A DNA stretch of 63,551 nucleotides, filler included, from Dugesia japonica (Eukaryota): assembly GCA_001938525.1 (NCBI GenBank). It is 5 parts of 5 records of this genome, joined end to end, with 100 filler letters (N's around TTAATTAATTAA, not from the genome) between each part and the next. Parts side by side here need not be neighbours in the genome. Positions count along the whole stretch, not along the records: positions 55,232 to 63,551 come from MQRL01598416.1; 4 more parts are not named here. The stretch is one strand, 5' to 3'. Below are positions 9,061 through 63,020 of the stretch, piece by piece. The position numbers and the translations under genes were made by a program. Under the pieces are notes generated by a model. It was given only the letters and a program-made list of their open reading frames with translations. It searched no databases and was not told the DNA's origin. Positions within the stretch are counted from its first letter, which is position 1. Each line of letters starts with the position of its first letter.

Positions 9061-9199
9061 ATCAACTTATTTTATATATTAAGGGGGCTATCCCATATTT
9101 AAATAAAATGACCCGTGTCTCGTTTTTGTCAAGATTCGTCCCGTATTTTTTAATTTGATTTTTTTATGGTGACAGCGGCTAAAAATTTAAACTCAAAGA

Positions 9200-24105: not shown

Positions 24106-24171
24106 GTTAGTTAATTTTAATTTATTTATTTGACAAAAATAGTTTTCCATTGTGCAATTTATAATTTGTTA

Positions 24172-31934: not shown

Positions 31935-32091
31935 ATTTTCTAATGGAGAAATTGAAATCCAATTGCGAACTAACTCTATTACCCCAATACCGATTGGTTT
32001 AAATTTTATTTTCATGGCTTACTCAGTCTATTATCAAATTGTTATTGCCGGTATTATATTGTTAGGAATGTATTTATTAATTATATTTGAA
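31935..32091 (+). CDS. OCA2: P protein (OCA2) exon
   Basis: FSNGEIEIQLRTN...YQIVIAGIILLGMYLLIIFE matches OCA2 QVTIATAILAGVYALIIFE; canonical splice sites. Confidence 0.92.
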
Positions 32092-32147
32092 GTAATTTTT
32101 TTTTTAAAAATGTATTTAAAGAAAAATAAATTTGTCAAATAAAATAG

Positions 32148-32219
32148 CTTGTTCATCGGTCAATTGCAGCAATTTTAGGATCACTTAGCGCTTTTGCAAC
32201 TTTATCTACTTTAAATTTG
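32148..32219 (+). CDS. OCA2: P protein (OCA2) exon
   Basis: LVHRSIAAILGSLSAFATLSTLNL; preceded by a 56-nt intron. Confidence 0.93.
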
Positions 32220-32294
32220 GTAATACTTTAATTTTCTATATAATACTTATAAATTTAAGTAGTATATTAATTTTTAAAATAAAATAATTTCTAG

Positions 32295-32417
32295 AGGCCT
32301 TCACTTGAGACAATTATATCCTGGCTAGATTTTGACACATTAAATTTGCTGTTTGGAATGATGTTAATTGTCGGGATATTTTCGGAAACTGGATTTTTCG
32401 ATTGGATAGCTTTTCAG
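32295..32417 (+). CDS. OCA2: P protein (OCA2) exon
   Basis: [41 protein letters not shown]; preceded by a 75-nt intron. Confidence 0.95.
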
Positions 32418-33570
32418 GTTATCAAACAGTTTCTTTTTATTTTACGTACTTGACAATTATAATAAAAGTATTCTAATAAAAACGAGAACAATGCTAAATC
32501 ATAGAAAATAGAAAATAATAGATTAAAATTATGTTAACAATAAACGTATGAATTTGTTCATATAAATTGATATATTTATAAATATCAAATTATTTATTTT
32601 CTATTTTTTTTGTTTAAACAGTCAATACTAATGAATTTTGATTTTAAAATTTAACAACAAACAAGGCCTGGATACTGGAATGTACTTATTAATTTTGTTT
32701 AGTAATTAATCTTATAAGATTTATATTTTGCAAACATAAAGCTCTTCGAGAAAAATCTTTCAACTTAATTTTCTACCTTACAAAATTATGTCTCAACATC
32801 TTTGTCGATTTCTTTAATTTACTAGATATGGAATTTCTTTAATTACATCTTGCTTACTGTTGAAGGCTTTTTGTAAACAAACTTGAAATCCCTCAGCTTT
32901 TTTCAGAATATTGGCATACATTTCCAAGAAATATTCATCTACTATGCAGGGAACTAACATTATTGTTCACTTTGTGTGATACCTTTTACATTTCACATCG
33001 TTTAATGAATCTCTTGAGGTCAACATCGAGATAAAAACACTTTTGCTAGCAATTTAATAGTGATTGCATTAGTTTTCATTAAAATAAAACTGCGATCAAA
33101 TATATTTTTGTTTTTGATAATAATCAAACGCGTANNNNNNNNNNNNNNNNNNNNNNNNNNNNNNNNNNNNNNNNNNNNNNNNNNNNNNNNNNNNNNNNNN
33201 NNNNNNNNNNNNNNNNNNNNNNNNNNNNNNNNNNNNNNNNNNNNNNNNNNNNNNNNNNNNNNNNNNNNNNNNNNNNNNNNNNNNNNNNNNNNNNNNNNNN
33301 NNNNNNNNNNNNNNTGTGAATTTAATATTGCTAAATCTAGTCTATAGACTACAAATTTTGTAACCTATGACCAGAAACATACATCTTATTTGGAATTAGT
33401 ATTTCGGTTGCATTTCTTCTTGCTTGACTAATCACATGTTTTGTCTGCATCAGTTTCTTCTTTAGTCTGTACTTTAGTAGCCATTACGTAGGATTACTGT
33501 TAATTTTTCCGTGGGGAGGCGCAAAATATGAATGTTGTCCCCGGTCGCCAAACACACTAGCTACGTCTCT

Positions 33571-33720
33571 GATAATAATTCTTATTTTCGATTTTGTCTT
33601 CGTCAGGAAAAGTTAATTCCTGACGAAGACAAAGTCGAAAAGTAGAATTATTATCAAAAACAAAAAATAAATTTGATCGAAGTTTTATTTTAATAAAATC
33701 TCAAAAACGATCAGTTACAA
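33571..33720. mobile_element. Inverted pair of Penelope pseudo-LTR ends with back-to-back hammerhead cores
   Basis: 85-nt imperfect palindrome 33571-33655 followed by the family tail. Confidence 0.8.
33614..33650 (+). ncRNA. Minimal type I hammerhead ribozyme
   Basis: TAATTC-CTGACGA-A-GAC aaa GTC-GAAA-ag-TA-GAATTA; stem I closes U-A where the 50987 copy has C-G. Confidence 0.7.
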
Positions 33721-33812
33721 TGATTAACAATTTTTATTTTAATATTGGCGTAATTTTGATTTTAATAAATATTGTTATATTTAAAGAAGTCTTATTTGAA
33801 AAATAACTTAAC

Positions 33813-35640
33813 TGGCGTCCACGCCGAAAATGTTAATGTAGTGACACGCCAAAAGCAACAAAAAGATGACTCCGAAGCTTATAAATTTTAATATAAGAAA
33901 ATTTGATGTCAAAAATGCTTCAGAAGCTACATAATGACTGAAAGAAATCGAAGAATGGCTCATTTTGAATGATTTTAGCTTGATGGGATGTTTTGATCTC
34001 TTTTTATTAGAGGAAGCTGGAGTTTTATGGAAATATTCAAAGTGGAATGGAAATACGAAAGGAGAGACAATGTGGTTTGTAAGCACTTTTACAATAAAAA
34101 AATCTATCACGGAAATGATAATGGAGCTTGCAACAGTTAAAAAGATTCAGGAGAGATTTGCAACGTTCCAGATATGATTAAGAAATTAAGTTAACTGTGT
34201 TTTGAATTCAGGGTTAAGTCATGACAAAATTATAAATGATTTGCTGACAAAGAAAGTCAAGAATCGAAATTTGCAAGAGACACTTATAACAAGACCAGAT
34301 ATTAAAGTTGCCGAGGTGAGATTTCTGGCAAAAATATATGAAGATGAAAAACATTTTAAATTCGTTGCTGGAAATTGAAGATATTTTAACTCAATATCGA
34401 GAAAGAATTAATCAAATGTGTTAAAAGGAGACCAAAATAATCATGAGAGNNNNNNNNNNNNNNAGTAGTCAATTAATTTTAAAACCAATAATAATGTAAG
34501 ATATGAAAAACCAAGAACAGAAATGTCAACGTCTCAGAGAAAATACAACGAGAGGATGTCACAACCGGTGATTACAGAGACACAGTGTTTAAGTAGGAAG
34601 CTCGAGAAATGTTACGGCGTTTAGTACAAAAGGGGGTCAATTTAGGTTAAATCGGATCCCATTCGGGATAGCAACTGCACCGGAAACATTTCAAAAGTTT
34701 TTGCATGATATGTTACCAGGGGTAATTTTTAAAGGTGTTATTATATATTATTATATGGAAAGATAGTTGAAGTTCATAGAGAAATATAGAAAGTAGTTTT
34801 TAACAGAATCAGAGAATCTGAATTGAGGATAAATCCAGAAAAATGCAAATTTTACCAAAAACAACTGGTCTTTTTGCGACACACAATAAGTACAGAAGGA
34901 ATAAAAACAAACGAAACTAAAATTCAGGAAATAAAAATTCCTGAAGAACCAAAATTTTCATTTAAACTCAGATCTTTTCTTGGCTTAACGAATTTACTAC
35001 AGGTGTTTTATCAAGGATTACTCCAGAATTGGAACAACTTCATATGAAGCTATTCCAGGATGTGACAAAGCTTTGATGTGGACAGAAGCATACTGAACAA
35101 AATTTGAAAACTTAAAAGACAAGTATTTTAACGCATAATTTGAGATGAATTATCCGTACGATAAGAGATATGATTACAACTTCACTTAAAGGAAATTGTA
35201 GCGAGAAAAACTGGGATGCATTATCAAGAATTAAGTTCAATATAAATGCTACTGTTCAAGAGTCTACGAAATTGTCACCATTTGAGATTATTTTTGAAAA
35301 GCGGATAAATTTGCATGCCAAGAGGGAAACCTTTCTGTAAACAAAAAAGTTAATCTAGAGATAGTTAGACAAAATTTAAAAGCAGCAGCTAATAGAATGG
35401 CAAACTCTGAAAATGAACAGCGTGGACACAGAATTTTTAAAGTGGGGGAGCAGGTGTTAGTTTGTGTTGAACCAAACAAAAGAAAGAAGAATGACTCTCA
35501 TTATGAAGGACCATATCAAATAATAAAGTTCCTATTAGACCTGCAAGTAGAAATAAAATTTCCTCATTCTTCATAGTACAGAAGAAGAGAATGGCATTAA
35601 AAGTGGAAAGTAGTTTGAAGAAGGAGAGAGTTACAATGAT
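33813..35640 (+). mobile_element. Internally deleted Ty3/gypsy element (gag, RT and integrase fragments)
   Basis: Candidate primer-binding site tggcgtccacgccg at 33813; LRINPEKCKF...LRSFLGL; NATVQESTKLSPFEII; YEGPY; polypurine tract gaagaaggagagag at ~35618. Confidence 0.85.
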
Positions 35641-35740
35641 TAACACTTAGTTTTAATAATATTTAAAATTTCTGTAATTTTGATTTTTAATATATATTGT
35701 TATATTTAAATGAAGTCTGATTTGGAAAGTAATTTAACTC

Positions 35741-35790
35741 AATCAATGGTTACGTCCAACAATTATTCTCGTAATAATTGTATTTGTAAA
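35741..35790 (+). repeat. Penelope pseudo-LTR tail fragment
   Basis: atcaatggttacgtccaacaattattctcgtaataattg. Confidence 0.7.
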
Positions 35791-36759
35791 ATGATTGCAT
35801 CAATGTTAATAAAATCGTCTAAAGACAATTTATTTTCAATGATAACACCACTTGTTTTGTATATAATTTTTTTAAAAAAATCCAAAGATAGCTTGGTATA
35901 AAGTAGTTACATAGTGGTACTCCAGCTCACCCATCCCCGGGCTGAAAAGTTTTTTAGACCGACATTTTTATTCATAGAAATTTAGCTGAAAATTTTAAAA
36001 AACTTTTTTATTTTGGGAATTTGGAATTCAGTCTTATACACGCACTCACAAAAGGTTTCGTCCTGGCTTTTATCATGGTAAACATCATTCAAATCAAAGG
36101 TTTATTGTGATGAAAAATATCATAGTTAAAAGTGAAGATTACATATACACAATAAATTAAATGAAAAATAACATTGCGACTCTCTCCAAGGAATATTAAC
36201 ATTGAAATCTAGTTGCTCCCTGAGTGGTCATTAATATTAAAATAAAAATTCACAACCAAAAAATTAAATGAAAGAACACTAGAATTCTCACCGAGTAGAT
36301 TTAATATTATAATAATAGTATAGACATAACAAATTAAATAACAAAAGAACAGAAGATTTTTAAACAACAATATATTCAAATTAAATCTTCTTTTCTATCC
36401 ATCTGATTGAGTTATCTGAGACTTGTGAGTTGAATTTTTAAATAATAAAAATTATATAATTTCAATTAACAAATAAAAACATTAAAACCTTTACATTGAT
36501 TAGATAAANTTATTCATTACGGTTTGAAATACTATAATGCCCATATAGTATACTTTTATTTTTATCTACCNATACATGCATATCGTATGTATTAGTCAAA
36601 GCTACTTTGGAACGATTAATGCAAAATAGTTGTTGGTCTTAACTGCAAATTCCTTATTGGTTAACTGATAACTTTTGATTATTATTACAACAATTAAAGT
36701 GCGACTGATGATTTATGTTGGTACCTTTTAATTTTATTCACTTAGCCTTCATAAATGTT

Positions 36760-37627
36760 TTTCGCTAAGGAGACTGTAAACTTTAAACCTCTAAACTCAA
36801 ATGTCATCAATTTGGGATGCAGTTACTGAGGAAATGTACTTGAAAGCTGTTGAGATGTCGGAATTTTGTGGTTATAAAAATTTTTTAGATTATATGATGG
36901 TCTATTTGAAACTTGATGTTTTTCTTTTTTCCGATTTCTTTAGGCAATTTCTAGCTAAATCTTTAGAAGATAATAGGTTAGAACCACTTAATTTCTTTGA
37001 AATTCCTAGAATGAGTTGAGCTTTTAACTTGATGATTTTAAATGAATCCATTAAACTTTTGTCCGATATTGATATGCACACTTTCTTTGAAGGTGGTATC
37101 AGAGGAAGTTTAACTTTTGTAAATAAACATTATGTAGCTACAGATAATGATACTGAGCTTTTGTATATAGATATTGATAATCTATATGGTTGGGCGTTAA
37201 CCCTTTGTACGCATAAATCTACGATAATAGCTCAAGTTTCTTTTCTTTTCGACGCCTAAATCAACTATAGTCCATGGGTTTTTAAAAAAAAGCTATTTTC
37301 CGACGCGGTAGTCGACTTTGTATTTAATTTAGATATTGATTTTCAAAAAATTAAAAGGATTTTTTAGAATAATTTATTTTTTGCATTTTTCAGATCCAAT
37401 TTTATTTTTCGTTTAACGCGTTCAACGGGTTAAGCNNNNNNNNNNNNNNNNNNNNNNNNNNNNNNNNNNNNNNNNNNNNNNNNNNNNNNNNNNNNNNNNN
37501 NNNNNNNNNNNNNNNNNNNNNNNNNNNNNNNNNTATAGTGTTGAAGTTGATTTGCTGATACCTGACGAAATACATAACTACTTAAGTGATTTAGTGGTTG
37601 CTGCTGAGAAACAAATTGTACCAGGTA
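36760..37627 (+). mobile_element. Polinton/Maverick protein-primed DNA polymerase B remnant
   Basis: DYMMVYLKLDVFLFSDFF, FFEGGIRG, LLYIDIDNLYGWALS (region II; WALS is restored on removing the TTAA insert), VEVDLLIPDEIHNYLSDL. Confidence 0.9.
37201..37429. mobile_element. piggyBac-type MITE inserted into pPolB
   Basis: TTAA at 37197-37200 and 37430-37433; terminal repeats ccctttgtacgc / gcgttcaacggg (10 of 12 match). Confidence 0.85.
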
Positions 37628-38140
37628 CAGGTAACCTTCCTACAACGCGGTAGATAGGTTCCTAAAAAATGCCGAGTTGTAAGAAATTGTGTTGTAGGGA
37701 CGTTAACTCCATACAAAAATCAGAGTTTGGTTCCAAATCGCAAAATTGGTTTTTATTTGGTATATACTTACTATATTTTTGTTTTTTTATTGAGTCATTT
37801 ATTTAAACTTCATTTATTTAAACAAAAACAAAACAATATAAAATAAAAATAGAATTTAAAAGCTACTTAACATATTCAAGTTAAAAGATTTAATGAATAA
37901 AAAAATTGTTTCACAAAGTTTGTTTAATTTAATTCTTACGACTTCTTTGTGAATGACGGGAAAAGCATAAATTTCAATAACGTATTTTGAAATTTTATTA
38001 ACGGGAAAAACCCTATTTTTTAAATTGAAATAAAAAAACTGTTCAAAAAAATGGCGTTACATATAAAAAGAATTCCGTGAAAATCGCGTTGTAGGAAACT
38101 TTTCACATTTTTGCAAACCGCGTTGTAGGATGGTTACCTG
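37628..38140. mobile_element. pogo/Tigger-type MITE
   Basis: TA target duplication; 23-nt terminal repeats caggtaaccttcctacaacgcgg / ccgcgttgtaggatggttacctg. Confidence 0.9.
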
Positions 38141-39007
38141 TACTTTTTATTTTGATTTGAAATTAAATTAATAACAGTAGAATAAGTTGATAATAAAGTT
38201 ATTTCATAACTATTTGTTGTTGTCATTAACATAATTCATTATTATTGTTCATACCGGTTATTTATTATTATTTGAAATAATATAAAAGTTATTATTCAAT
38301 AATTGATATTAGTCAGTAAATATATTTTCCTCGACTGATGATTAAGAATTCATTATCCTCTAATAAGTACTGTTTCCAATTCGGGTATCCGATAATTTAC
38401 ACAATTATTTTAGGTATTTGAAAATCTGAGTGATTGAATCGGATTAAAGTTTTAATGTTCAATCTGAGAGTTTCTTAAATTTCTTCTAAATTAATTATTG
38501 TATTGTTGTGGATAAACTTTATTATAATTATTGTATTAGTAGACTTCAATTTGGTAACGTTACATTTCAAGAATTGTGAAATTTTTTACGTTTCATATTT
38601 TTTGTTATTTGTAATTTATTATTAAAATTAAAAATTAGACAAAGCATATATAAACTACTGGGAACTTTTGCAAGAAATTTAGTAAGATTAAGTTTTTTGG
38701 CATTCAATACTTTCGTTTTATTAAAATATTGTTTTCCGAATAAAATTTATATTAGAGTAATACCTGTATTTTATTATTTATTCTTTTTGAATATTCGGAT
38801 ATTTTGAAAAATAAATATCCGAATATCAGGGTAGTTGTAAATTGCGTAATTTGAAAACACTGTTTAGAAGCGGCAAAGCTTTTGACTATGATAAATAGTA
38901 AGATATCTTGGAAACTATTTAGCTGCATTTATTATTAAAACTATTAAATTTTCTTTTAATATACCTGATAATTTTATTATTGGTGAAATTAGTTTTATTA
39001 TTTTTAG

Positions 39008-39271
39008 GCTTTTAAAATTGCCCATGGTAAACCGTGGCCTTTGTTGATTATCCTTTGTAGTGTTTCAGCAATTGTATCGGGGTTTCTTGACAATGTAACA
39101 ACTGTTCTCTTGCTCACACCAGTGACTATCAGATTGTGTGAGGCTCTTAAAATGGATCCAAAAAGAGTACTTATCGCTGAAGTTTTATTTTCAAATATTG
39201 GAGGAACTGCTACAGCTATTGGTGATCCTCCAAATGTTATTTTGGTTTCATCAAATGTACTAAGTAAAAAT
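39008..39271 (+). CDS. OCA2: P protein (OCA2) exon
   Basis: [22 protein letters not shown]...[22 protein letters not shown], the ArsB/NhaD/P-permease signature, nearly identical to OCA2. Confidence 0.97.
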
Positions 39272-40049
39272 GTAAGTTTTGTTATTTAGTTATTTTGAGG
39301 ATCTTTCTTAAATTATAAGTGTTGGAGTTTCCAACACAAAAGGTTATAAAACTAAAATAAATTTCTAATTTCTTAAGAAATAACTAGACTTTAAGTGTCA
39401 GGTAAAGGTCCGTCTAGGAAGAAATTAAACTTTGTTTAATTTAGTTTGTTTTCTTTAATTCAAATCTTCTGAAAATTCAAATTAATTTTCTGTAAACCTT
39501 GATTTAAAAAAACAGTTGATGGGAATTGAACGTGAATCATTATTTNTACTTATTTTCCAACACAATGTCAAAAATATTTGAATTGATAACAAGAACTAGA
39601 AACCATCATTTTGATTTAAGCTTTTTAATTTATTGAAACTTTAAAGATAAACAATATTTAAAAATTTCCAAACACACGATTCAATTTACTTTTCTATTTT
39701 CCTTTTAATTGATACATTTAAACAATCAAATACTTTAAATATTTATTTTAAATATAAATTTTACGTTTAATTTGGCAAAGTTTAATATTTCAAAAATTCA
39801 TTTTAATATATGCTTTAAAAATTGTTTTTAATTAGTTTTGTTAATATAATCTTGTTAAAAAATAAACAAGAATAATTTTGGAAATTTAATCAATTTAAAT
39901 AAGTAGTTTAAACATATCCAAAATTTATTTTTACATGAATAAGAAATACATTTAAAATTTCATATTACGTGTATAAATAGAAATTGACCTGCAATTAGAA
40001 GCAAATTAACTTGAAATTTATTAAAGAAATGGTGTTTATTATAACTTAC

Positions 40050-41108
40050 ATTTATCGAAGATTGAAAATTTCTTTGTACACGCAATTATGAGAGAAAGTT
40101 TTTTGTTATCTTCGGTGGAGTTTGCCTCGTTTATCACTATCAGTTATTGAAGCTTTGAGGTCTTTTCCCTTTGTAGCTCTTGAAATTGCTACGTAAAATT
40201 GATCATAGCTGAATATAAGTGTTCTTTAAAAAATTCTAACTTTATCGAAAGTTTGTCCTCCTGACTAATAAAAGATGCGGTAACAGGGTTAAAATAGTTC
40301 AAACTAGAATAAAGTATAGCTCTTTTGGGAGAAGTTATAAAATGCCTCTTTTTTTTGCCAGTATTATTTTCAGCAATGAGAAACTTTTCTCTACAGAAGC
40401 AGAAGTCCATTGACATTTTTGTAATAACGCAAAGATTGATGGTGAAATTTACTTTCGACTGCCATTCACAATTGACAAGATCTCTTTGGCATTCAATCGC
40501 TTTTTTAAATAAGAAGCAAAAGCACATAGATCGATTTCAAATTGTAGGTTTCTAAGTATTCAACAGCTTGTTTAATGTTGCATCCACCATGTAAGTTTTT
40601 TGAGGATCTTCAATAACACCAACCAGGATATTTAAAAATTTAGAACCAGAAATTTTTGATTTATCAACAACCATAAATAAAAGTTTACCAGTGACTTTAT
40701 AAGGGAATTTATTCGACACATTTCATTTTAGAACAATTCAGGAATTTTTTCTCTACATGTTTGTTCAGATGGTAGCGGATGTTCAATTGTGATGAAGAAA
40801 TTGCGAAGCTCTGTATTCCTTAACTTTCATAAAGGAATATCTGCTGACAAGAAGGCTCTTACCACATGCTTTGCAAAGTCATTTGAATGAGGATTAATGA
40901 ACTGTTGAGCTTTTGAGGATGGCTGTTGGGACATACGCTTGTGCTTATCAGCACAATGATGTTTTTCAACAAAGAATTTTTTTCATGTTTCACAATGGTG
41001 TTGCATAACTTGAAAAAGTGCGTTCCTTGGTGTTGTAGTAAACTACAGTAGATGATTTCGTATGATGGTAGCTATCTTTGAACTTTGACACTTAGCGACT
41101 TTAGGCAT
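40050..41108 (-). mobile_element. Decayed hAT transposase, CGGBP1-related type
   Basis: N-terminal zinc finger KLCNTIVKHEK..FVEKHHCADKH, VVRAFLSADIP, LRNTELRNFF, FMVVDKS..FLNILVG. Confidence 0.65.
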
Positions 41109-42454
41109 GAGGTCTGAAATGAAAAGTGAGTAAAAATGGTAGGTCAGTGAAATACGTAAGAATATGTTATCACGAGTATCACACAATTACTCTGCAATAC
41201 AGTACCAATAAACTGTGTTAGGTCACTTGAGGAAGTGAAGAATGCACATGTGATGTGAAATCACGCGTGGTCAACACAACCATAGTCATATATTAATATT
41301 TGTATATATTTATCTTTCAGAGTGTAGACAACCTTATGGATAAAACCACATATCATAATCACTCGATACTTGCTGATATTTGACGTTTACAAATTTATAA
41401 CTCGCGCACTTTTTGTATACAATATATTTGTATGATGTATAAACTGTTAAGCTCAATCATCTATGCCGAAACATATTCATAGGCACTACAAAGGCAGAAA
41501 TCATCATTAAGTTACTTAAATTGACATAAAATGCAGTTATTGACTTTATTGGCCTTAAATGGAAAAATTGACTTTTTGTTGACCTAATAACTTTTTATAG
41601 GATGACGTAAATAGTTAGAAATCACATATTTGAATTTTTCTCAAAAAATTAAATCTGATATTTCAAGTTAACGTTATTGACTTTTTGTGGCTCTAATTAT
41701 TAGGTTAAGAATATTTATTGTGGTACAATGATTTTTAAAGATATTATTTTTATCTGATAATTTTGAAAAAATAATAAAAAATTAAATTTTTAATCGCAAT
41801 TTATATTAAAATAAAATAATAAAATAAAATAATAAAAAGTGATCATTTAACAAAATTCATAAAATTTCATAAAACTTTCCATAACAAATTACTTATTAAC
41901 TTATCATGAAAAATGACTTATTACTTAAATCAAATATACACAATAAAATTATTTAAACAATGTCTATAACAGGGATNNNNNNNNNNNNNNNNNNNATGAA
42001 TAATTGTTATTCGGTTGATTGAGGATTTTGCAGGATTGATTGAATATTATTTCGAATGTTATTTTGCTTACATATTAGGATATAAAACCAATAGTTCAAA
42101 GAGGATCACTAATATAATTGTCAGATAAGATCATGTAGGTATTTGATCTTCTATGGGTTGTTGATTTGGAATCTCGATAATTAATTTGTTTTAAGGGCTT
42201 CTGTTTTGATTGTATATCCACGTATTGTTATGAATGTCCGTATATTTGAATATAGTGCAAATGTTGTTTTATATTATCTGCTGTATACATTTTGTATGTT
42301 TGTTTTTTTTATTTTTCAATTGTTGCCTTCCCTAACAAAATTATTAAAAGTTATAAATATAAAAGCTATAAAATTATTGAAAGTTAAACATAAAAGATTA
42401 ATTTCAAATCGATAAAATTAATTTTCAAGTAAAATTATTAAATTTATTAAAAAT

Positions 42455-42665
42455 TTTATAATTACAATTATTGTGAGAATAATTGTTGGACTTAACCATT
42501 GATCGGATTTGAGATTTCANNNNNNNNNNNNNNNNNNNNNNNNNNNNNNNNNNNNNNNNNNNNNNNNNNNNNNNNNNNNNNNNNNNNNNNNNNNNNNNNN
42601 NNNNNNNNNNTTTTACAAATAAATTTTGTTTTGTTTTGATCGAAGCCTTATCTTATTTTAATGAA
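42455..42665. repeat. Inverted Penelope pseudo-LTR pair spanning an N gap
   Basis: Minus-strand tail gagaataattgttggacttaacc before the gap and plus-strand ttttgatcgaagc...ttttaatgaa after it. Confidence 0.65.
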
Positions 42666-43179
42666 ATTATTAAAAATTATTAAAAAAATAGTTTTATAAA
42701 AACTAAAGTATAGTCTCAAAATTTTTAGCTTATTTAATTAGTTTGAAAATAGCAAATGTAAATTGTTATTCTTTTTTTAAATAAATATTTCATGGATTCA
42801 AAAACTCTTAAATTCAACAGTGATCGTATTAGACTCACCTAATAATTTGTTTTTTATGTAGTTATTATTTTCAATTTTACCTTTATCATATACATTGATT
42901 TCAATCAATTAATTTTTAAAAGATTATTTTTTAATTGTAATTCTTATATAATTTTATTTCTAAATAATTCATGTTCGAAATAAATTTTATACAAATAATT
43001 AAGGTTTTCTTATACTGGTTTCTTTTTAAAATTCTTTTAATCCAATATCTAAATGAATTAATTTCCTTGTTTCTGATATTATTGACTCCATTTTATATTA
43101 TAACTATTTCGTGAGCAAAATGACTGATGAAGCAAATTTTTATATTAACTGAGAGATTAATTTACAAAACCTACGTTAT

Positions 43180-43712
43180 TATAGTAATTCTAGCCATCAC
43201 TGGATATATCAAATGAGGGAATGGCGCCCCTAAAGTGGTGGTGTGGTTATCTGTCCATTTTTTGATGGTGGAAATTTTAAATGCGATAAGTACCTCAAAA
43301 TGTTGTAAGAAGAGATTTTTTCATCCATACTAAATGAGGATTGTAACTTCTCAGCTTACTTTCATCATAATGGTGCTCCACCTCATTATGGTGCGCATGT
43401 ATGTCAATGGTTACTTGGGTAGGTCTCTCAGATCTCCAACCCGTTAGATTTTTATCTTTGAAGCCCTTTGAAGGCTATGGTGTATCAGGAAAAGATTTGA
43501 AACATAAATCATTTTAAAGAACGGATCACCAACGCGATTACAAGCATAACTTCAACTGTGCTTACACGAGTTCTTCAGAAGTAGATATTGTACATTAAAG
43601 AGTGTTTCCGGAACAATGGTGATCATGTAGGGCATGTTATATAAATAAGAATGGTTGTCCTTTCTTTTTTATATTTATATTTTATGTGTATGAACATTTA
43701 TAAGACACCTTG
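43180..43712 (+). mobile_element. Tc1/mariner transposase 3' remnant
   Basis: YFHHNGAPPHY, RSxDLQPxDFYL, LKAMVY; terminal-repeat-like end taagacaccttgta. Confidence 0.75.
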
Positions 43713-44225
43713 TAGACAAACTACAGACAGCAAGAATTGTTTTTTCTCCCTGGAGATCCACATGACCTTCGAAGTAACTATGGTTTAACTGGAGAAAATT
43801 TTTATTAAGATTTATTGTAATTTCATTAAAACTTTAGGTTTTTATTTATATTTTCCATGTTTTATTTGATTATTTAGATATTTTATTGAATAATTTTTTA
43901 AATAATTTATATTGGAGTATAAAATAATACCATTTGTGCAAAATATTTTTGGATTTGTTGAATTATTTTAGGTTTCAATTTAGATTTTTACAATTCATAT
44001 GCAAAAAAATATGTTTTTTATCAAAAATAATTTGGTCTTAGCTTACTACTCGGTTTAAAAATTACTGATGTTTTTTATATTAATTAAATCAATTGGGTTT
44101 AGAGAAATAAATTAATCAAATAATCTTAAAAATATTTTTTAAACGTTGATTAATTTACAATTTTTAGAAACAATTTTTTCTGATGATCATTATCCGATTA
44201 ATTATTTTAAAGTAATATTTTCTAG

Positions 44226-44364
44226 GGAGTTAATTTCGCAAATTTTACTATTCATATGTCTGTTGGATCACTGTTTGTTTTATTATTAGCTTTGCTTTTT
44301 TTGAGATTTTTGTATCGAGATTTATCTAATACTGTCGGTGATGAAGAATCTTACAGAATAGTTG
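44226..44364 (+). CDS. OCA2: P protein (OCA2) exon
   Basis: GVNFANFTIHMSVGSLFVLLLALLFLRFLYR matches OCA2 GLDFAGFTAHM. Confidence 0.93.
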
Positions 44365-44406
44365 GTTAGAAAATTAAATTTTTATTTGATGATATTATAT
44401 TTTTAG

Positions 44407-44597
44407 AATTGAAACGAGAAATTGAAGTCTGGAGAAGAAGTGCTTATAGTATAACTATAGCATCTAAAGAAGAAGCAACCGTTAGAGCATTATTATTAGA
44501 AAAAGCTGTTCAACTTGAACACGATTTGGGTGTACACACACATACTCGAAGACCATCAGCACATTTTCGNGAAACTCTTAAAGAAATGGAAAATAAG
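44407..44597 (+). CDS. OCA2: P protein (OCA2) exon; gene continues outside this contig
   Basis: ELKREIEVWRRSAYSITIASKEEATVRALLLEK matches OCA2 ELKHEIHVWR..ASREETAVR; preceded by a 42-nt intron. Confidence 0.95.
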
Positions 44598-45020
44598 GTG
44601 ACTAATTTCCATTTTTTATATATTCTATTTAATTAATTCTCTAAATACGAAAGTTTAACTTTGAAACTAAAAGAAATGTTGATTTCCAAATGATTCAATA
44701 CTGTTATAAGGGAAAATTTTGAAAATGTATAGTTTTTTTGAGGAATTTTAATTAATGTTGAATGTCATATTTGAGTTATTTCTATGTTCATTTTTAAAAG
44801 TATTTTGAAAAACGTGTATTTTCTGCTTAAAAGGAATACTTTTATAAATTGTAAGGGAAGTCAAATTTTTCATGAGTATAAGTTAGTATTGTTAATTTGT
44901 ATTTTGGTAATTAGTTTTTAATTAGTATATCAATTGTAAACAAAAATTATCACCGCCTAAAGAGACTGAAAAATTTGAAACTGATTGTGTTAGTGGGAGA
45001 AAGATTGGCTCCGTATGCAC

Positions 45021-52350: not shown

Positions 52351-52544
52351 TTGAAGTGTCTCATCTTAACTTTATTATTATTATTTCAAAGTATTGCAGG
52401 AACAAAGACAATGGGGAAGAGGTGTTTTCTGAATTACCATATCGTGAATTTTATCCGCTGTCCATTCTTATAAAGATCTCTCGAAACAATGTTTTTGATT
52501 TTGTGATGTCCGAAATGCATGAATTAATGATAATGTTTTAGTAA

Positions 52545-53030
52545 AATTGTGAAGAATGAGAGTTTATATGGATGATATATTAACATTTTCAGAAATTGTA
52601 GAACAGCACAATAGAATATTAGACCTAGGTTTTAAGAAAATTCAAAAATTAGGATCAAGAAATAATTCGGGAAAATGTCATTTATTGCAAGCAGAAGTAG
52701 AATTTTTAAGGCATGTCATAGATAAAAATGGATTTACAAACAATCCGACAAAAATTGAAGCAATTTAAAATTTTGGAAGACCTACATGTGTGAAGGATTT
52801 GAGAAGGTTTTTAGGAATTTTCAATAAATATAGATTGTTCATAATTAATTACTCGATGGAAGCTAAAAGTCTACAAGGATAATTTGTAAAACTTGTGTGG
52901 TCGGACTGCTGTGATAGAGCTTTTTATGATTCGAGAGGCATTGACAAAAGTACCTATATTGAGTTTACTAGACATAAAAGTGTTTGTTCTAGACACAGAT
53001 GCGAGATTTGATGCAATAGGAATATTATCA
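52545..53030 (+). mobile_element. Ty3/gypsy RT and RNase H fragment
   Basis: VYMDDILTFS, KCHLLQAEVEFL, DLRRFLG, FVLDTDA. Confidence 0.88.
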
Positions 53031-53689
53031 GAATAGGAATATTATTAGAATATGTCCGAAATACATTTAAAGTGGTTTTTTAATGAATAGTGGTAATTTT
53101 GTCTCACGTGTTTTTTAATGGAAAGAAATGATATTCATCAATCAGTATCTACACGAGTGCAGGCACAATTTTTAAAACTAAAATTTTAACTCATTATATT
53201 AATTGCCACAATTTAAACTCAATTTTATAAATTTTATTTAAACCCAAATTGATCGAAACGATTTCATTAGATTCAAATTTTCATTGCAAAATAAACTTTC
53301 AATGATAAAGTTTTTCAGTATTTGAATAAGAAGCTTGATATTTCAACAGCCCGAATTTAATTATTTTATTTGCAATACAGATTCGATATTAAAAACTTAC
53401 AATTCAATTTTATCGATAACTTAAATCGAAACCGAATCATCATCATGCTTAAATTGTCTGATAGTTATATCATTGCGCAAAATTAAAATTAATTGCAAAA
53501 TGAGTTTTAACTTGATTTATTGAGAAATAATTTAGTTTTCGTGATTTTAAACTCAAGTATCTAAATACTCGAATATTTTATGATCCGGCTAATCGTAAAA
53601 TTTTATTATTTAATACCCAGGTATTAATCAATTTGGAAAATATGATGCATTCAAATATGTATTCAAATAATTTATTTTTTATTAATAAA

Positions 53690-54960
53690 ATAATATTCAA
53701 GCAATCCAATCTAAAGGCTATCTAAAGTTTCCATTTTTAATTGATTACCCACTTTAGTTAGGAAGCTAGATGCTGCTGAAAACACTCTCACTAGATATAT
53801 AGGTAGGTTGAATAGTCAGCAAAACCTGATACAATTTTTCGAAATAATATCCTCTTTTTCAACGATTTACTTCAATCAGGGTAGTTCTTTTTTTAACGTT
53901 GATAGTCTGCTCTGTTGTGGGAGTGAGCCTATTGTTTTTTGCATTTCAGTCAAAGTAAACACTTCATGTTCTGAATCCGTTTCTTGTTTAATATTTCCAA
54001 CTAAATTTTCAGATGCAAGAAACAACTGTTCAACTGTCTCCTTAGCTGACCACTTCATCAAGTATTTTTGAAGAATATTTAAAATAATAATTAGTCAATT
54101 AAAAATAATAATAATAATTTGCAAATTTGGATAATTACTATTTTGTAAAAAAACAATAGCGATATAATATCTTTGTTTCGTTTTTATTTGATTCCTTTTT
54201 TCAAGGCTAGTATCATTTCATTTAAGAGATAGGTATCAGCTTGTTGCAATTTATTTAATAGAAAAATGAAAACTACTTCAGCTTTAAGTAAATTGCTGTC
54301 CTTTTTGCTTAAATCTTTAACTGCAAGCTGTATAGACTCAAAAACTTGCGATATTTCCTTTAAAATATTGATGTTTGCATTATCAAATTGTTGCTGGTCT
54401 AGTTCGATTAACAGTATTTATACAGTTACTCAATTTTAGAAAATAATTTATCATAGGAAGCATAGAGTTCCACTGAGTTTTGCAGTCAAGTAATAATCGA
54501 AGTTTTTTCCCTTCTTGCTTGAATACATGTTTCTGAAAAATACTACTTCTTACAACTGACTTTTTGAAAACGTTTATTATTTTAAGAGTCTCAACTAGAA
54601 CTTTTTCAATATCTTTACAAATTTCTGGAATATCACTTATAGCTTCATCTTCAAAATTCAAATTATAGTCAGAAACCAATAATTTAACGTATAAATTGGT
54701 TATAACATGGTTATAACATAACTGAGAAAATGCTTGAAATTCTCGTCAATATTTGACCATAACTGAAGCTCCGTCTTAGGTTAAGGAGACCACATCTGAA
54801 TTTGAATACATTCTTAACTTTACAAGCTTGTCTTTGAATAGCCTTATTGTAACATCAGAATCACAAGAACCTTCGATAGGTACTAGGCCAATAACGCAAG
54901 GCGACATTACTGTTGAGTTGATGGTAATATTTATCTAACTTCTGATTTTAATGTCACTCA
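53690..54960 (-). mobile_element. Decayed hAT transposase
   Basis: LLLDCKTQWNSMLPMI, AVKDLSKKDSNLLKAE, SESVFSAASSFLTK; related to the 9200-10826 type. Confidence 0.85.
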
Positions 54961-55233: not shown

Positions 55234-56046
55234 CAATTAGTAGAAAAACATGGTTCTACTTACATAACAAGAATAATTTATTCAAATAAAATTATACTCA
55301 GAGTACCGGAAGATAAGAAGAATATAATGTATATCTCTGCGCATATAAAAGATAGCCCGAGAGTATACAAGGGGAAGGGTCAAATAGAAATAGGAGGATT
55401 AGAAGCTAACACTAAATATAAACTCTGGATATGGGTGCGAACAGGTAGATACAGGGTAGTAGAACATCATATATTTACTACACTGCCTAAGAAACGAGAA
55501 CAAGAAAAGTTAGGCGCAACAAGGATGTCATTAAAGACGCAATATACGAATATTCTGACAAAAAAAAGAAAGTTGAGTACAACCAAACCACAATCAGAAA
55601 AAACTATCCCTTAAGCAAAATCACAAATAAAGACACAATATAGAACTATTCTGACAAAACAAAGAAAGTTGAGTGCAACTAAACTACAACCAGAAACAAC
55701 TATTCCTCATAATACACCAGTATATGGTAATGCCATAATGACAAAAAAAATTAGAAATGAAAATCTAAAGAGAGATCCAAAAACTTTGAATAGTAACAGA
55801 AAATTAAATTATCAACAATTAAAACATGAAATTCTACATATGTTGGTTACAACAACAATAAAATCATTTGACATAAAAATACTACATCACCCTTTTACAG
55901 TATTGGGAATGATTGCAGTACTCTTCCTCCTCGCTTTCATAATTACATTAATTCAAATGCATAANCGATATAGGTGGAAGAGGCAGCGTTATCGGCGTCG
56001 CAATACCCCACAAATTCCGAATTGTGTCCAATGGACATTGGTCTGA
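55234..56046 (+). pseudogene. Fibronectin type III + stalk + single transmembrane protein, 5' truncated, one in-frame stop
   Basis: Frame is open from the contig edge; IEIGGLEANTKYKLWIWVRT...FTTLP (FN3 tyrosine corner); 96-nt tandem duplication; TM VLGMIAVLFLLAFIITLI then an Arg-rich tail. ORFs 55327 and 55669 share a frame across the TAA at 55612. Confidence 0.7.
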
Positions 56047-56301
56047 ACACCCTGCGGAAATTTTAAAAAAATAAATAATCTATATTATTATGTATACATA
56101 TTTTTATTTATATAATCAGCTACTAATACCTGTAGCAGTATATATGACTAACCAGTCCTTAAAATCAATCACTAATTATTCATTTATTTTAGAAAAAACA
56201 TTCGAACAATCTGTAGTTGTAATAATCAGTCGACAGTTGATACAGTCCAAAATACAAACACAAATATTTATACATAACAATCAATCAAGTATACGACATA
56301 A

Positions 56302-57478
56302 CATGCAGGCACATAATAATATAGCAAGACAAAATAATAAAAGCAATACTAACAACACACAGAAAAGTAATAATCAATCAAACAGAAATATACATACAGA
56401 TAGCAATACAGCAAATGTGCCTTCACCCTCTACCTTTACCACAAAAAGTATTCCTAAATTTTACGATAACATTCAGAATTTTACATTTAAAGAGAAACAA
56501 ACAGAACCCAGAATAGAAACGTTTACCGAAGTAGAAAAAATCCTTAATTCACCAAAAAATAACACTTTTGATTAAGACTTAATCATGATACGATTTCAGG
56601 AAGCAAAGCGATATACTCTTCAGCAGTTAATAGGTTATATAAAGATCCCTAAGAATCCTGAAAGTTCATTGATAAAAGGGAAGAGTTATAAAAGCCATTC
56701 AAATGCATGTTACAAAAACCCCTATAAAGTTTACACATAATAAAAGTGAAATAACGGTAATTAATAACATTTCGCTAATAATTGAAGAAATAATAAATAA
56801 AGATATAAATACTATTAAAGTAGCCATACAAAATATCCCAGCAGTNNNNNNNNNNNNNNNNNNNNNNNNNNNNNNNNNNNNNNNNNNNNNNNNNNNNNNN
56901 NNNNNNNNNNNNNNNNNNNNNNNNNNNNNNNNNNNNNNNNNNNNNNNNNNNNNNNAAAGTATGCAGTATTGACAAAAGAAGATATCGACCAACTTACGGT
57001 GTATATTGATGTGAAGACTGTGAAAGATGAATATTTCAACCCAAAATTGATAGAAATCACCATTATGTCAAATAATGGAACTATTTTAATGGACGAAACC
57101 CTCTGTCCAAGAGAAAGAATTAGACATTTCGATTCACACATCACAGGATGTGACCAGGAGAAAATTAGACAGTATAAAAATGCCTATCCATTGATATTAA
57201 GAGCAAGACAACTTCTTTATGGTCAAATATTAGTAGGTTATAATATTGGGAAAAATTTGATTAGTTTTCATATGGATCAAAGGCACGTAATAGGCATTAG
57301 AGATCTCGCAGAGGAAAAATGGAGACGATTATACACCCCGAATGTCAAAAAACTCAAACTCCTTAACTTAATGGAAGCAGTGTTCAAGCCATTAAAACAT
57401 GAATATATTATAAAAGATATGCATATATGTATATATATAAAGTATTTGTATGACCATTATTATATTATGAGTATGTGA
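56302..57478 (+). pseudogene. REX4/ISG20-like DEDDh 3'-5' exonuclease with Asn-rich N-terminal extension, decayed
   Basis: VYIDVKTV (ExoI), GTILMDETLCP, ITG, LLYGQILVGYNIGKNL (ExoII), IRDLA, HEYIIKD (ExoIII-like). Upstream part has a stop, a frameshift and an N gap, so its link to the nuclease domain is inferred. Confidence 0.75.
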
Positions 57479-57603
57479 TTTAATATGTATATATACTTTC
57501 AGAATATGGAATTAGCAGTTCAATCTAGNNNNNNNNNNNNNNNNNNNNNNNNNNNNNNNNNNNNNNNNNNNNNNNNNNTAATATGTATATATACTTTCAG
57601 AAT

Positions 57604-58870
57604 ATGGAATTAGCAGTTCAATCTAGAAGAAGCTTCTTACAAAACAATGCACAAATCGTACTCTACGAAAAAAACAGAAACATAAAAAATCCCTTTGATT
57701 ACAGTTAGCGTGATGCAGCTCTTGTATCCTTAAGTATTGACCACGATCCTATATGCCCTTTATGCTACGACAAACCCATAATGCCAAGAATAGCTCAGTG
57801 TGGACACTTTTTTTGTTTCTCTTGTATTATACAATACTTTGACATAACAACATCAAGTGTCGTCCCTTGTCCCTCAGGTAGAACTTACAAAATTCACCAG
57901 CGAAATCTTATACGTACCAAAATCTGTCACCAACAAGTTCCAACAATTGGGCAATTTGTACCTTTCACCTTACTAATAAAAATGCCACATAACAACAATC
58001 TTAGATTTGCTCACTTGACACCTTTCATGTATCAAATCGACACCCCAGATAGAAGCGACCTCACTAGTGAATTCCTCACTATATGCACACAACGTGATTC
58101 CATCTCAATTAAACAAATCAATGATGATATCCGTACTATTAGTTACGGACCCCTTCCTAATAAACAAAAAAGTAGATTAATACAGTTATTAAAAGGAGAA
58201 TGCTCTTATTTCTCAGATACAATTAAAATCCTGAACAAATTGTAATTTAACCGAGAATTCACAAAAGCCACCAGAGACGGAGACAGATATAATTTGATAG
58301 TCCATAACACCGAATTAAAAAATTGTTCACACGTTTACCAGACAGCCAAATACCCACGAACATTTTTAGACCATAAACAAGCAAATAAATACCTCAAATC
58401 CGCTCCAGAAGACATCCCTTTTCGTATGGGTGGTTATATAGAAATAATATTCAACTTAATTATTGATAAGGCCTTACATCCCAGTACATGTTTCTCATTC
58501 CTGCTTGATGGCCTGATGATTCGTATAATTTAAATACGAGTGGACACTATTTCTACCCCAAAAAGACTTGACGCCCTTAGCTATCTTCACTTACATGCTA
58601 AGCAAGTGAAGGAAAAGATCATGGAAGAAAATAAAAGGTTGCAAACAATTGCTGAGGAAAGTATAACTCGTATGGGCCAACCAGCTCGAATACTGTCTAG
58701 AGTAAATAACCCGAGAGACATCTTCTATTGAGAACCTTCCAACTCCCCTTCTAGTATCGACCCCGAATATGAATTCCCCGCTTGTATATTTAATGAACCC
58801 TGTATGGATGAAATACCATCAGCCTACCACGACATGGCGTGCCCGCGATTCTTATTCACACAAAGATGAC
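57604..58870 (+). pseudogene. Intronless, divergent RNF10/MAG2-like RING E3 ligase with in-frame stops
   Basis: SFLQNNAQIV (RNF10 LFLQANCQFV), CPLC..PRIAQCGHFFCFSCIIQY..CP, IGQFVPFTLL, VYQTAKYPRTFL (FYQAEDGQHMFL), coiled coil, EFPA. One reading frame with stops at 57706, 58243, 58531 and 58729. Confidence 0.8.
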
Positions 58871-59659
58871 GGAGCATCTTTTCGCAAGGGGGTACATTTG
58901 TTGAGATCTGAATATATACATATACATAACATAGCATGCAGGCAAAATATAACATTTTTCAAATCAACACCTAAAAGAATCAAAGGGGTATTCGAGTTCA
59001 TTATTCAATGCAATCCAACTCAAGATCAAATCAATGAACTTTCTATNCTTGATATAAAAACAATTATGATTTATTTTATTTTGTGAATATTTGGAACATT
59101 TATATTATTTGGAACATTTATTTTTATTTTTAACATTTGTTTTTATCTAAAAATGTTTTATGTTATGAATAATATTTTTGCAAAGTTTTATATTGTAAAT
59201 CATAATTTTTGCAAATAATAATTTTAATTATTTAAAAAGTCAGTTTGTTTTAATGATTTATTTTAATTTCTATTGATGTGTGTATAAACCTACGGATGTA
59301 AAATCAGTATAAATACTGATGAGTTTTAGCTAATTTTCAGTAACTTTTGATTCAACTAGAATCCAACCTCTCTGGGCAGCATATCTAGTTTGATTCTAAA
59401 TTATTGCTAATAAGCTATAAGGTGTTTATTGTGTATATACCAAAAATAAAACTTTTAAAAGGTATTCAATAGTTATTTATATAAGGGAATNNNNNNNNNN
59501 NNNNNNNNNNNNNNNNNNNNNNNNNNNNNNNNNNNNNNNNNNNNNNNNNNNNNNNNNNNNNNNNNNNNNNNNNNNNNNNNNNNNNTAAACATATTATTGA
59601 AAAATAGTTATAAAGTAATCGAACCATAAAATAACTTGTTGAGTAGAAATACCAAACAA

Positions 59660-60043
59660 AGTCTTAAAGCAGAAAATAATTCTGGTTCCAAGCAACGATT
59701 GTAGAGTTGTGCTAATTTATACAAATTTATTGAAACCTACATATTTACCACAATTGTTAGCAATTGTAAACATATATTTTTAATATCATAGAGATTCAAA
59801 TCTGGTGGCTCTAAAGGCTTCTTGCATCCCATTATTCTACATTTTCCTGTTCTAAAGAAAATAATCGTATACTTGTCACCTTTATCTGTACAACTATTTC
59901 ATAGTAAATAAACCATTCTAGATTTCGGACATTTAAAATTGTATACTTTTATCTTTGAATTGACATGGTTTTCCTATCGGAAAGCTTAATTTTTTCGTTA
60001 CTTCTAAGGACGTTACTCCAATGTAATTAATAGTAGTTATCAT
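59660..60043 (-). pseudogene. Highly divergent TATA-binding-protein-fold gene fragment
   Basis: MITTINYIG...KPCQFKDK|NKGDKYTIIFFRTGKCRIMGCK...INLYKLAQLYNRCLEPELFSALR (compare TBP LIFSSGKMVCTGAK and YEPELFPGL). Frame is kept by a putative 61-nt GT-AG intron (59946-59886); one TAG. Confidence 0.7.
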
Positions 60044-60619
60044 ACTTAATAAATTTGAGAGGAGCATTGAGGTTTGTTGGAATGAATTTAATTGATCCGT
60101 TAAAACCAATATAAAAAAGGAAATAAATTATAAATAAATTCTGAAAAACAAGATGAGGATATTAGGAAATGACGATGTACATCAAATTGTTGTTAACAGG
60201 AAAACTTTGATTTTATGTAAATTATTAAAATCGAATTTATTCAAGTCAAAATTTAACAAAATATACTGACATAGAGGGGCAGATGAAGAGAATGGACAAA
60301 TTCAATCTGAATTTTAAAATATTAAAATACTCGATAGATAGTGGGGGTCATAGCCAGCAAATATTCAGTAACCCGCCCCTCGTGACTTAAGGAAATTTAA
60401 TACTAATGCATTTAGTTGGGAATTTTAAAAAATGATATCATATTAGTTAATATTACGAAATGGGATTAAGTGTCCATGGATTTCCCCTGTGAATTTAGTT
60501 GTTAAAATTTTTTGCAACCAAATTATGTAATAAGATTAATTTCATCGTCGAGATTTTTACGTAATAGGATTAAGTGGCTATGTATTTTCCTGTGGTTTTA
60601 GTTGTAAAATTGTTTTAGG

Positions 60620-61605
60620 CTTTTTAGTTAAGGATTTGCTCAGTGAGGTTGAAATATGTCAATTTTTGATTAGTTTTCAATGGTTTTTGTCTAAACTTTC
60701 CTCGGAAATGGTTATTTTGGTCAATTATTCGGTTAATTGGTCAAATCTTTACTTGGGATTGCTCTGTTTGGGTAATTTTTGAACGATTTGGTCAATTTTT
60801 GGTTGGTTCAGGGAAACTTGGCTCATTTTTGGATGAATCGGTGAATTAATTACTTGAGAAAGGTAACTTGGTTAATTTTAGGCAATATTGGTCAAATTTT
60901 TCCTCGGTTTTGCTCGGTTTGGGCAAACTTGGTCGGTTTTAGGTAATTTTTGAGCGATTTTGTTAGGAATTTATTCGGTGAGATAGATTTTTGATTTGAT
61001 TTAGATCGTGTTTGTCCAAAATTTGCTCGGTGAGGTCAAATAAGGTCGATTTTCTGTTGGTTTAGGAAAATATGGTATAATATTTCCTCGGGATTGATAA
61101 TTTTTAGGGGATTTAGATAAAAGTGGTTGAAAATTTTCTAAGATTTCGTTAGCTTCGTTAATTTTTTGGGTGATTTGGTTAAAAATTTCCTTGGGATTAG
61201 TAATTTTCAGGTGATTCAGTCAATTATTTCCTCGGGATATGTCAGGTTAGGTAATTTATGGGCATTTTGGTCAATTATATACTCAAAAAAGGACAATATC
61301 GAGCAATTTTGAGAGATTTGGTCCAATATTTCTACCAGATTGATCATATTGACTCAGTTTTCAACAATTTGATCAATTATTTACTCGGTTTAATTAATAT
61401 TGGTCAAACTTTTCATCGGTGAGGTCGAATCTGGGCAAACTTGGTCGGTTTTAGGTTAATTTGGTCCAAGTTTCCTCGTGATTCGTCAGTTTGGGTAGTT
61501 TTTGGGTGATTCAGTCAAATGTTTTGTCGATCTGGTTGCATTTGGCTCATTGTTTGGCGATTTGGTCAATTATTTTCTCGGAAGGGACAAACTTGGTTAA
61601 TTTTA
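60620..61605. repeat. Degenerate G/T-skewed satellite
   Basis: Recurrent motifs gatttggtcaa, tttcctcgg, ggtgaggtc and gggcaaacttggtcggttttagg (60921 and 61433). Confidence 0.85.
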
Positions 61606-62050: not shown

Positions 62051-62279
62051 ATAAGACTCTGAAACTAGATATTTTTAATACAGTAAATCTAGATATATTG
62101 ATATTTTCATCACTTAGACCAACACAGGGACAATCAAGTAATACTTATTCAATTATTTCTTATTCAAACTAGGTTTCGTTTCATTGTCAGTAAGTTTCCT
62201 TGAGTAAAGTTAGAAAAAATGATAAGTAAGGACAAGAATGAGAAGGATCGAATTTTCTAAAACTCGTGAGATTTAATCT

Positions 62280-62540
62280 GAAATTTTATAGTAGTCGATA
62301 AATATTTTATGAAATTGCACAGTAGTCGATAAAAATAATTTGAAATTGCACAGTAGTCGATAAAAATAATTTAAAATTGCACAGTAGTCGATAAAAAATT
62401 TATGAAATTGCACAGTAGTCACAAATTATTTTATCAAATTTTACAGTAGTCGATAAATCTTTTATGAAATTGCACAGTAGTGACAAATTACTTCATGAAA
62501 TTGTATAGAAGTATTAACACATTTTATGAAATTTATATGA
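62280..62540. repeat. ~29-30-bp minisatellite
   Basis: ttttatgaaattgcacagtagtcgataaa, about 8 copies. Confidence 0.9.
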
Positions 62541-62779
62541 AATAAGCAAGATGAATGAATAATATGTTGCATTACATACAAAGTATGTGTCCAGTACAAG
62601 TGTGAGAATAGTGCAATATAAATGCTACTCACTCGACATTCTAATATTACTCAAGGAAATGAATAAATGGAAATTACTGATTCTAATACTGACAAGTTTC
62701 ATGACCCACTAATTCTTTCATATAGTTACTTGGTAAAAATTGGTTTCAATTGTTAAAATTATAGGGGACAATATCAAAA

Positions 62780-63020
62780 CATACACCATACTCGTTACCA
62801 ACAGATTTATCAATACAATACTTGCTATCATCAAGTCTTGATACATAATGATCGCTACCATTACTTCTTAACATATACAATACTCACTGTCAGTAATTAT
62901 TAACATACACAATACTCGCTACCTTTAAGTCTTAACATGTACAATACTCACTAACAACAGTTATATCAACAAAATACTCGCTACTAAAACAGCTCTTAAT
63001 ATACAGATTACTCGTTATCA
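62780..63020. repeat. ~30-bp minisatellite
   Basis: caatactcgctacc...ttaacata, about 8 copies. Confidence 0.85.

Follow-up and report, generated by a model that had tools for sequence, protein, structure and literature searches.

The minus strand of the window, by which we mean the whole 63,551-nt stretch of Dugesia japonica DNA analyzed here, very probably carries a decayed Polinton/adintovirus copy of a small TBP-like gene (mini-TBP), and that copy is a pseudogene. Comparison with its relatives indicates that the TBP-like coding from 60043 to 59659 is a real gene remnant. The intact relatives of this fossil likely serve the element as an early-to-late transcription switch.

Translation of the minus strand recovered both the ATG at 60043 and the TBP-signature peptides on which an earlier, sequence-only reading of this DNA had been built. 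The coding from 60043 is split over two frames (Table 1), and the nearest relative aligns by tblastn in two segments, residues 1-33 at 60043-59945 and residues 32-106 at 59883-59659 (E 5e-36). The 5′ piece is 55-70% identical to the relatives P0002, P0003 and P0004 (tblastn, plus alignment). The 3′ piece, which reaches from the end of repeat 1 into repeat 2 as far as the EPELF stirrup, is 62-68% identical to P0002, P0004 and P0009 (tblastn). When this piece was searched with an X at its stop, 16 of 19 candidates were relatives (best E 1.4e-25, 68% identity), all of them 100-155 aa long and all with Pfam PF00352. The Pfam TBP search that the sequence-only reading had proposed did return a match for the 3′ piece, a weak one (E 7.7e-4, 19.7 bits) that falls under the curated cut-off of 22.9 bits, whereas P0002 reaches 47.2 bits.

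Table 1. Window features that bear on the mini-TBP copy (59659..60043, minus strand) and its element.
Feature	Positions	Strand	Basis or remark
5′ piece of mini-TBP gene	59945..60043	-	family aa 1-33, first half of shortened repeat 1
Extra DNA, ~67 nt	59880..59946	-	ends uncertain by several nt; stops inside
3′ piece of mini-TBP gene	59659..59886	-	family aa ~31-106
Premature in-frame stop TAG	59737..59739	-	translation; precedes INLYKLA
Decayed 3′ end	59586..59658	-	frame closes at 59610-59608, ahead of assembly gap
AT-rich 110-nt spacer between divergent TBP and ATPase starts	60044..60152	.	sequence; multi-copy in DNA runs
Packaging ATPase remnant (A32/FtsK-type, Pox_A32 family)	60153..60344	+	tblastn
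Scrambled Polinton protein-primed DNA polymerase B remnant	36522..37626	both	tblastn

The window copy is a fossil rather than the hidden working gene that had been proposed. That proposal missed the TAG at 59739-59737, a codon at which paralogous RNA reads carry other letters. The EPE stirrup motif is present in the window sequence and the F116 region is missing; for family residues 107-150 there is no tblastn segment in frame on the minus strand here. We call the locus a pseudogene because it has an in-frame stop and the final third of the coding is missing, and it yields no working protein. The truncated second repeat described in the sequence-only reading is real in the window copy and is not a family trait, since intact relatives continue for ~45 residues past the copy's last matched residue. 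The fragment lies between repeats and an assembly gap (59491-59585, beyond the decayed 3′ end) in AT-rich DNA of about 25% GC. Paralogous contigs and reads still align on 59617-59678 at an identity of at least 80%.

Intact members of the family are intronless and ~150 aa long, with a median of 149 aa among 121 relatives. The minimal N terminus remarked on in the window copy proved to be family-wide, with N-I-N-Y at residue 4 or 5 in 105 of the 121. The search by which family size was judged gave 3,790 matches at E<=1e-5, cellular TBPs included, of which the best 120 were examined; a scan of IMG/VR gave 40 pattern matches and 0 relatives. The fold was modeled for P0004, an intact relative and not the window copy, using AlphaFold2 with 15 sequences (pLDDT 93.8). 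Foldseek matched this model at E 1.8e-9, with 44 PDB matches at E<=0.001, those listed all being TBP. Residues 1-150 superimpose on yeast TBP 66-240 with Z 13.1 and rmsd 2.6 over 148 aligned residues, and the next fold scores Z 6.8. An intact member is predicted to fold as a whole two-repeat TBP saddle. Its repeat 1 is ~25 residues shorter than in cellular TBP and matches the profile of repeat 2 with an hhalign probability of only 0.1; because repeat 1 is both this short and too divergent for a repeat 2 match, its DNA contacts are uncertain.

In the EPE stirrup of these relatives, E96 is kept in 116 of 121 (D in 5) and P97 and E98 in 121 of 121; the C-terminal stirrup of TBP binds TFIIB, according to passages of PMC10005294. 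F41, F100 and F116 are kept in 120-121 of the 121, and F21, which presumably corresponds to the first repeat 1 Phe, is found in 112. At the positions that we take to match yeast I194, V203 and L205 (mapped via an Encephalitozoon TBP alignment, with colinearity to yeast numbering assumed), the relatives hold R in 119, C in 121 and N in 121 of 121. Mutation of I194, V203 and L205 alters the TATA specificity of yeast TBP in the mutant TBPm3, as given in passages of PMC1636458. Retention of the intercalating phenylalanines, together with invariant residues at the specificity positions, suggests sequence-specific DNA binding. Among the 80 mini-TBP loci kept for analysis, 39 have a complete ORF of 130-175 aa. 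In pairs with at least 70% identity and pS of 0.02-0.7, dN/dS was 0.13-0.45 in 20 of 20 qualifying pairs, which are not independent of each other. By this measure, intact mini-TBP genes are shown to be under purifying selection.

Pattern counts in the related loci show two classes of upstream box. We considered the 100 nt upstream of genes after removal of near-duplicates; the patterns were chosen from the same upstream sequences, and the loci are related to each other and all bear TBP. The pattern ATAAAC[AG] lies upstream of the ATPase in 24 of 26 cases, the PW-like gene in 14/18, F4 in 14/17, the PLA2-like gene in 10/12, the major capsid gene in 9/11, the integrase in 11/17, the minor capsid gene in 7/14, the pX-like gene in 4/5 and the protease in 3/7, against a shuffled expectation of 0.2-1.1 per class and a background of 4.7%. 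It is seldom found upstream of TBP (2/37), F2 (2/15), the zinc finger gene (1/10) or the polymerase (1/5). A different arrangement, TATA followed 19-27 nt on by an Inr-like TCANT, precedes TBP in 17 of 37 cases (0.8 expected) and the ATPase in 1 of 26. Before the major capsid, minor capsid and integrase genes, the ATAAAC box falls in the coding sequence of the preceding gene, and its enrichment there may partly reflect codons. In loci L003, L034 and L039, the box before the major capsid gene sits inside a small upstream gene, where its codons spell a peptide, S-I-N-K, that looks conserved; a promoter would here lie within a coding region.

We propose, with somewhat better than even confidence, that the intact mini-TBP is an early-to-late switch. 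An ordinary TATA+Inr promoter would first let host Pol II transcribe the TBP gene. With its changed DNA-reading surface, the mini-TBP would then bind the (T/C)ATAAAC[AG] box, which host TBP should disfavor, and recruit host TFIIB via the retained EPE stirrup. It would thereby turn on the ATPase, capsid, integrase and accessory virion genes late. No TFIIB was matched by Pfam among the 52 locus ORFs scanned, which are a subset of all ORFs, and no RNA polymerase of the element's own was seen in the TBP-bearing loci. It is also just on the probable side that many kinds of animal Polinton share such a virus-style transcription programme in two stages, without an RNA polymerase of their own: the mini-TBP, of changed specificity and made early, would redirect host Pol II to a private (T/C)ATAAAC box ahead of the packaging, capsid and integrase genes, and the window copy would be one fossil of this system.

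Protein and box are correlated within TBP-bearing loci, and another factor could read the box as a general Polinton promoter. On this reasoning the intact mini-TBP would not be a late-gene switch at all. It would act as a decoy or modulator of TFIIB, NC2, Mot1 or TAF1, or as a binder of DNA in replication or packaging, with the ATAAAC box read by another factor and the window locus still a dead Polinton TBP. We consider this unlikely, though it deserves the most serious attention among the alternatives: no surface is better conserved than the TFIIB-binding stirrup, repeat 1 is both shorter and remodeled, and the box counts come from TBP-bearing loci alone. Against this reading stand the retention of three or four intercalating phenylalanines, the occupation of the specificity positions by other, invariant residues, and a TATA-like box that marks virion genes and avoids the TBP gene.

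A Polinton/Maverick (adintovirus) type element is supported as the carrier of the mini-TBP. From 127 relatives confirmed in a metagenome scan we retained the 80 best loci, all of them partial contigs. A Polinton core gene is present in 41 of the 80 loci, in 28 of the 38 that are at least 3 kb long (and absent from the other 10) and in 22 of the 26 of at least 4 kb. The core genes counted were ATPase (28 loci), integrase (18), minor capsid-like (14), major capsid-like (13), protease (11) and polymerase (9). Pfam identified Pox_A32, rve, Peptidase_C5, DNA_pol_B_2 with Endonuclease_7, and PLA2 on the locus ORFs. The capsid-like families F8 (408-429 aa) and F7 have no Pfam match; by size and position we take them to be putative major and minor capsid-like proteins, respectively. 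In locus L076, a second TBP-domain gene of 268 aa (2065-2868, plus strand; Pfam TBP E 9.1e-7) lies directly upstream of the mini-TBP.

In the window, the only Polinton genes are two remnants, an adjacent ATPase and a pPolB 22 kb away from the same or a separate insertion, which is the kind of neighborhood that the sequence-only reading had suggested looking for. The ATPase remnant is 39-47% identical to the ATPases of TBP-bearing loci (E 1e-6 to 6e-4), with an eroded Walker A and in-frame stops. It stands head-to-head with TBP, 110 nt from the TBP ATG, an order found in 2 of 28 loci (the L054 row of the gene-orientation list is an artefact of how its ORF was chosen). No exact ATAAAC[AG] box is left before it in 60044..60152. 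RNA of run X10 over the ATPase remnant has the same mate orientation as over TBP (69 vs 22), so paralogous ATPase reads would be antisense to that gene in the case of a stranded library. The polymerase remnant is 49% identical to the L003 polymerase over 130 aa (E 1e-30); one C-terminal piece of it is inverted, and it apparently lies within an intron of a host transporter gene. An rve match at 18.6-19.0 kb was considered as a Polinton integrase and left uncounted, as it looks LTR-retroelement-like. The idea of an element-borne TBP-like factor is supported, and the virus-like element is of Polinton/Maverick type rather than a large DNA virus. The family, whose copy number was also raised in that reading, is abundant in this genome. 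Between 1,084 and 2,516 contigs per DNA run align on 915 nt, most of them less than 95% alike, with up to 91 contigs at one TBP position and 17-76 at an identity of at least 99%, figures that are not a copy number. The mini-TBP element is present in many copies in the Dugesia japonica genome.

The two pieces of the window copy are separated by extra DNA, in which the sequence-only reading had seen a 61-nt GT-AG segment that could be removed cleanly in frame. The GT..AG at 59946-59886 exists, but its removal is not clean: the excess is 67 nt, and the TAG follows. The spacing from KPxQ to F..G.CR is 12 codons in 100 of the 121 relatives (6 have other lengths and 15 are unmatched by the pattern), and it is 103 nt in the window, hence 67 nt in excess of the family spacing. 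In three DNA runs, each from a different study and one of them perhaps the source itself, window-identical contigs cross the segment, which is true genomic DNA of the window copy. Of the DNA joints listed across it in four runs (15 of 39 joints are listed), 6 of 10 are net 67 and none is net 61; the remaining crossing joints are larger or contain unknown filler. By these alignments, the extra 67 nt are specific to the window copy and absent from paralogous DNA. A tandem duplication of the flank was rejected as their source, because its score is equaled or exceeded in 861 and 1,593 of 2,000 shuffles, and neither the window nor the 80 loci yielded a source. Only short local near-repeats are visible by eye in the region.

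RNA reads bear on the same question. Four runs were sampled, 6-25% of each, with reads aligned at an identity of at least 80%; the sample included no positive-control gene, its animals may be of another strain and may not carry the window copy, and the power of the test is limited. One DNA run of the same species contains only 0.04 of the window's words. Among the 336 reads from these partial runs, none is at least 99% identical to the window copy and 3 are 95-99% identical; depth is zero in the bin 59896-59926. None of them shows a clean splice of 61 or 67 nt, the junction at 59946/59886 that had been suggested for checking included. Paralogues account for the joints that were seen, which are of net 67 in 10 X10 reads and 2 X9 reads and of net 68 in 3 X14 reads. 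Other letters intervene at these joints, unlike at a clean splice. Other copies of the family give low-level RNA.

These data weigh against the suggestion that the copy was intronized after integration, and a 61-nt intron is not supported. That the copy gained a real intron and is now a spliced, working, host-domesticated TBP-like gene is very improbable, even though a second AG (59946-59880) makes a 67-nt GT..AG exactly equal to the excess and the segment is real DNA. The same 140 nt hold 15 GT..AG pairs of 42-91 nt, 4 of which bridge both frames, and the candidate acceptors have no pyrimidine tract. With either candidate intron removed, the stop leaves 79-81 codons, which together with the missing last third are too few for the saddle. 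Equally remote is a degenerate host TBP paralogue (TRF-like) or an endogenous giant-virus gene: the EPELF loop is eukaryotic in type (archaeal TBPs read EPEQF) and NCLDV TBPs have the same fold, but identity to solved cellular TBPs is 18-25% and to viral ones 8-21% as against 55-70% within the Polinton family, a Polinton ATPase adjoins the copy, no giant-virus core gene was seen among the window ORFs scanned, and more than 1,000 divergent contigs per DNA run are unlike a single-copy host locus.

The rest of the window includes spliceosomal genes and LTR and hAT-like remnants in AT-rich DNA. A dense, intron-free, partly decayed cluster of ORFs occupies 55234-58950 (plus strand). It includes a fibronectin-III-like and transmembrane frame recognized by eye (55234-56043), an ISG20/REX4-like DEDDh exonuclease (56957-57475; RNase_T 0.95 in the atlas, PDB E 0.086) with 0 homologues among 42 candidates, and a RING finger, presumably RNF10-like (57709-58242; Pfam zf-C3HC4 E 1.6e-7), whose frame continues through stops to about 58870. 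We do not tie the cluster to the Polinton because it has no tblastn match with any ORF of the 80 loci; it resembles the cargo of a different large mobile element or of a virus. Host transporter exons, which we take to be OCA2/P-protein-like, lie at 31861-44633 (plus; CitMHS E 4.6e-27 for 39008-39286), a C2H2 zinc-finger exon at 23068-24114 (plus) and a 399-aa low-complexity exon of no family at 6028-7224 (plus). Remnants of LTR-retroelement integrase/reverse transcriptase and, recognized by eye, of hAT-like transposase occur at 18100-27250, 34790-35570 and 52480-53050 (plus), as well as at 54386-54745 (minus) and 9191-10590. The rve match at 18455-18919 (E 5.9e-14) is counted among these LTR-retroelement remnants. 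There is a degenerate, strongly G/T-skewed repeat at 60500-61600, and tandem arrays lie at 62279-62533 and 62778-63003, with units of 31 nt (8.2 copies) and 32/64 nt.

Why does a small TBP in a transposable element matter? It bears on how Polinton genes are transcribed and on what would trigger virion formation, which no paper in the literature searched addresses. The window locus alone adds little, being a pseudogene and not an intron gain. The factor-and-box pair, however, allows Polinton transcription to be tested using a single small protein and a site of 7-8 bp. If the proposed switch is real, the mini-TBP should prefer the C-containing box among TATAAACA, CATAAACA and TATAAAAG when compared with host TBP. 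The box would then mark late genes and potentially active elements, and the pair would be a natural orthogonal TBP-TATA system, smaller than TBP cores of 173-190 residues.

Virus-encoded TBPs were known before, and in the literature searched, as far as the passages available go, Polinton-like elements with TBP appear as a figure label only. In the passages and supplement text of Starrett et al. 2021 (PMC8502044, also a preprint), TBP is named only in figure legends, and neither a TBP family nor a promoter box is described. Across the open-access text available on Polintons, Mavericks, adintoviruses and polintoviruses, those legends were the only mention of TBP or TATA. A term search of PMC11131425, 10.64898/2026.06.19.733378 and PMC12220804 gave no mention of TBP or a TATA box.

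How does the mini-TBP compare with known systems? It shares with cellular TBP (PF00352) the two-repeat saddle (as modeled for P0004), the YEPELFP stirrup and the repeat 2 phenylalanines. Unlike cellular TBP, it is ~150 aa long with no N-terminal extension, is ~20% identical, has replaced specificity positions and is element-borne; the TBP cores in the PDB matches listed are larger, at 173-190 residues. The TBPs of large DNA viruses (Nucleocytoviricota, herpesvirus vTBP BcRF1/UL87 and nimavirus) are likewise virus-encoded proteins of the TBP fold, but they run from 169 to >1,000 aa and are 8-21% identical. Herpesvirus vTBP recognizes a variant box, TATT, and recruits host Pol II to late genes, and the switch logic proposed for the mini-TBP resembles that of the beta/gammaherpesvirus vTBP. 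Most NCLDVs use their own RNA polymerase. The three positions replaced in the mini-TBP family, taken to match I194, V203 and L205, are the same three changed in yeast TBPm3 in the passages of PMC1636458; the replacements differ, and what TBPm3 alters is base 2 of the box, while the main differences of the Polinton box are at bases 1 and 7. By this comparison, the parallel shows a changed surface and not specificity itself. Finally, the loci that bear mini-TBP genes share pPolB, rve integrase, A32 ATPase and adenain protease with Polintons/Mavericks, that is, adintoviruses as presented in passages of PMC8502044, and the likeness extends to putative capsid genes of ~410-430 aa and ~340-520 aa and to PLA2-like and pX-like genes.
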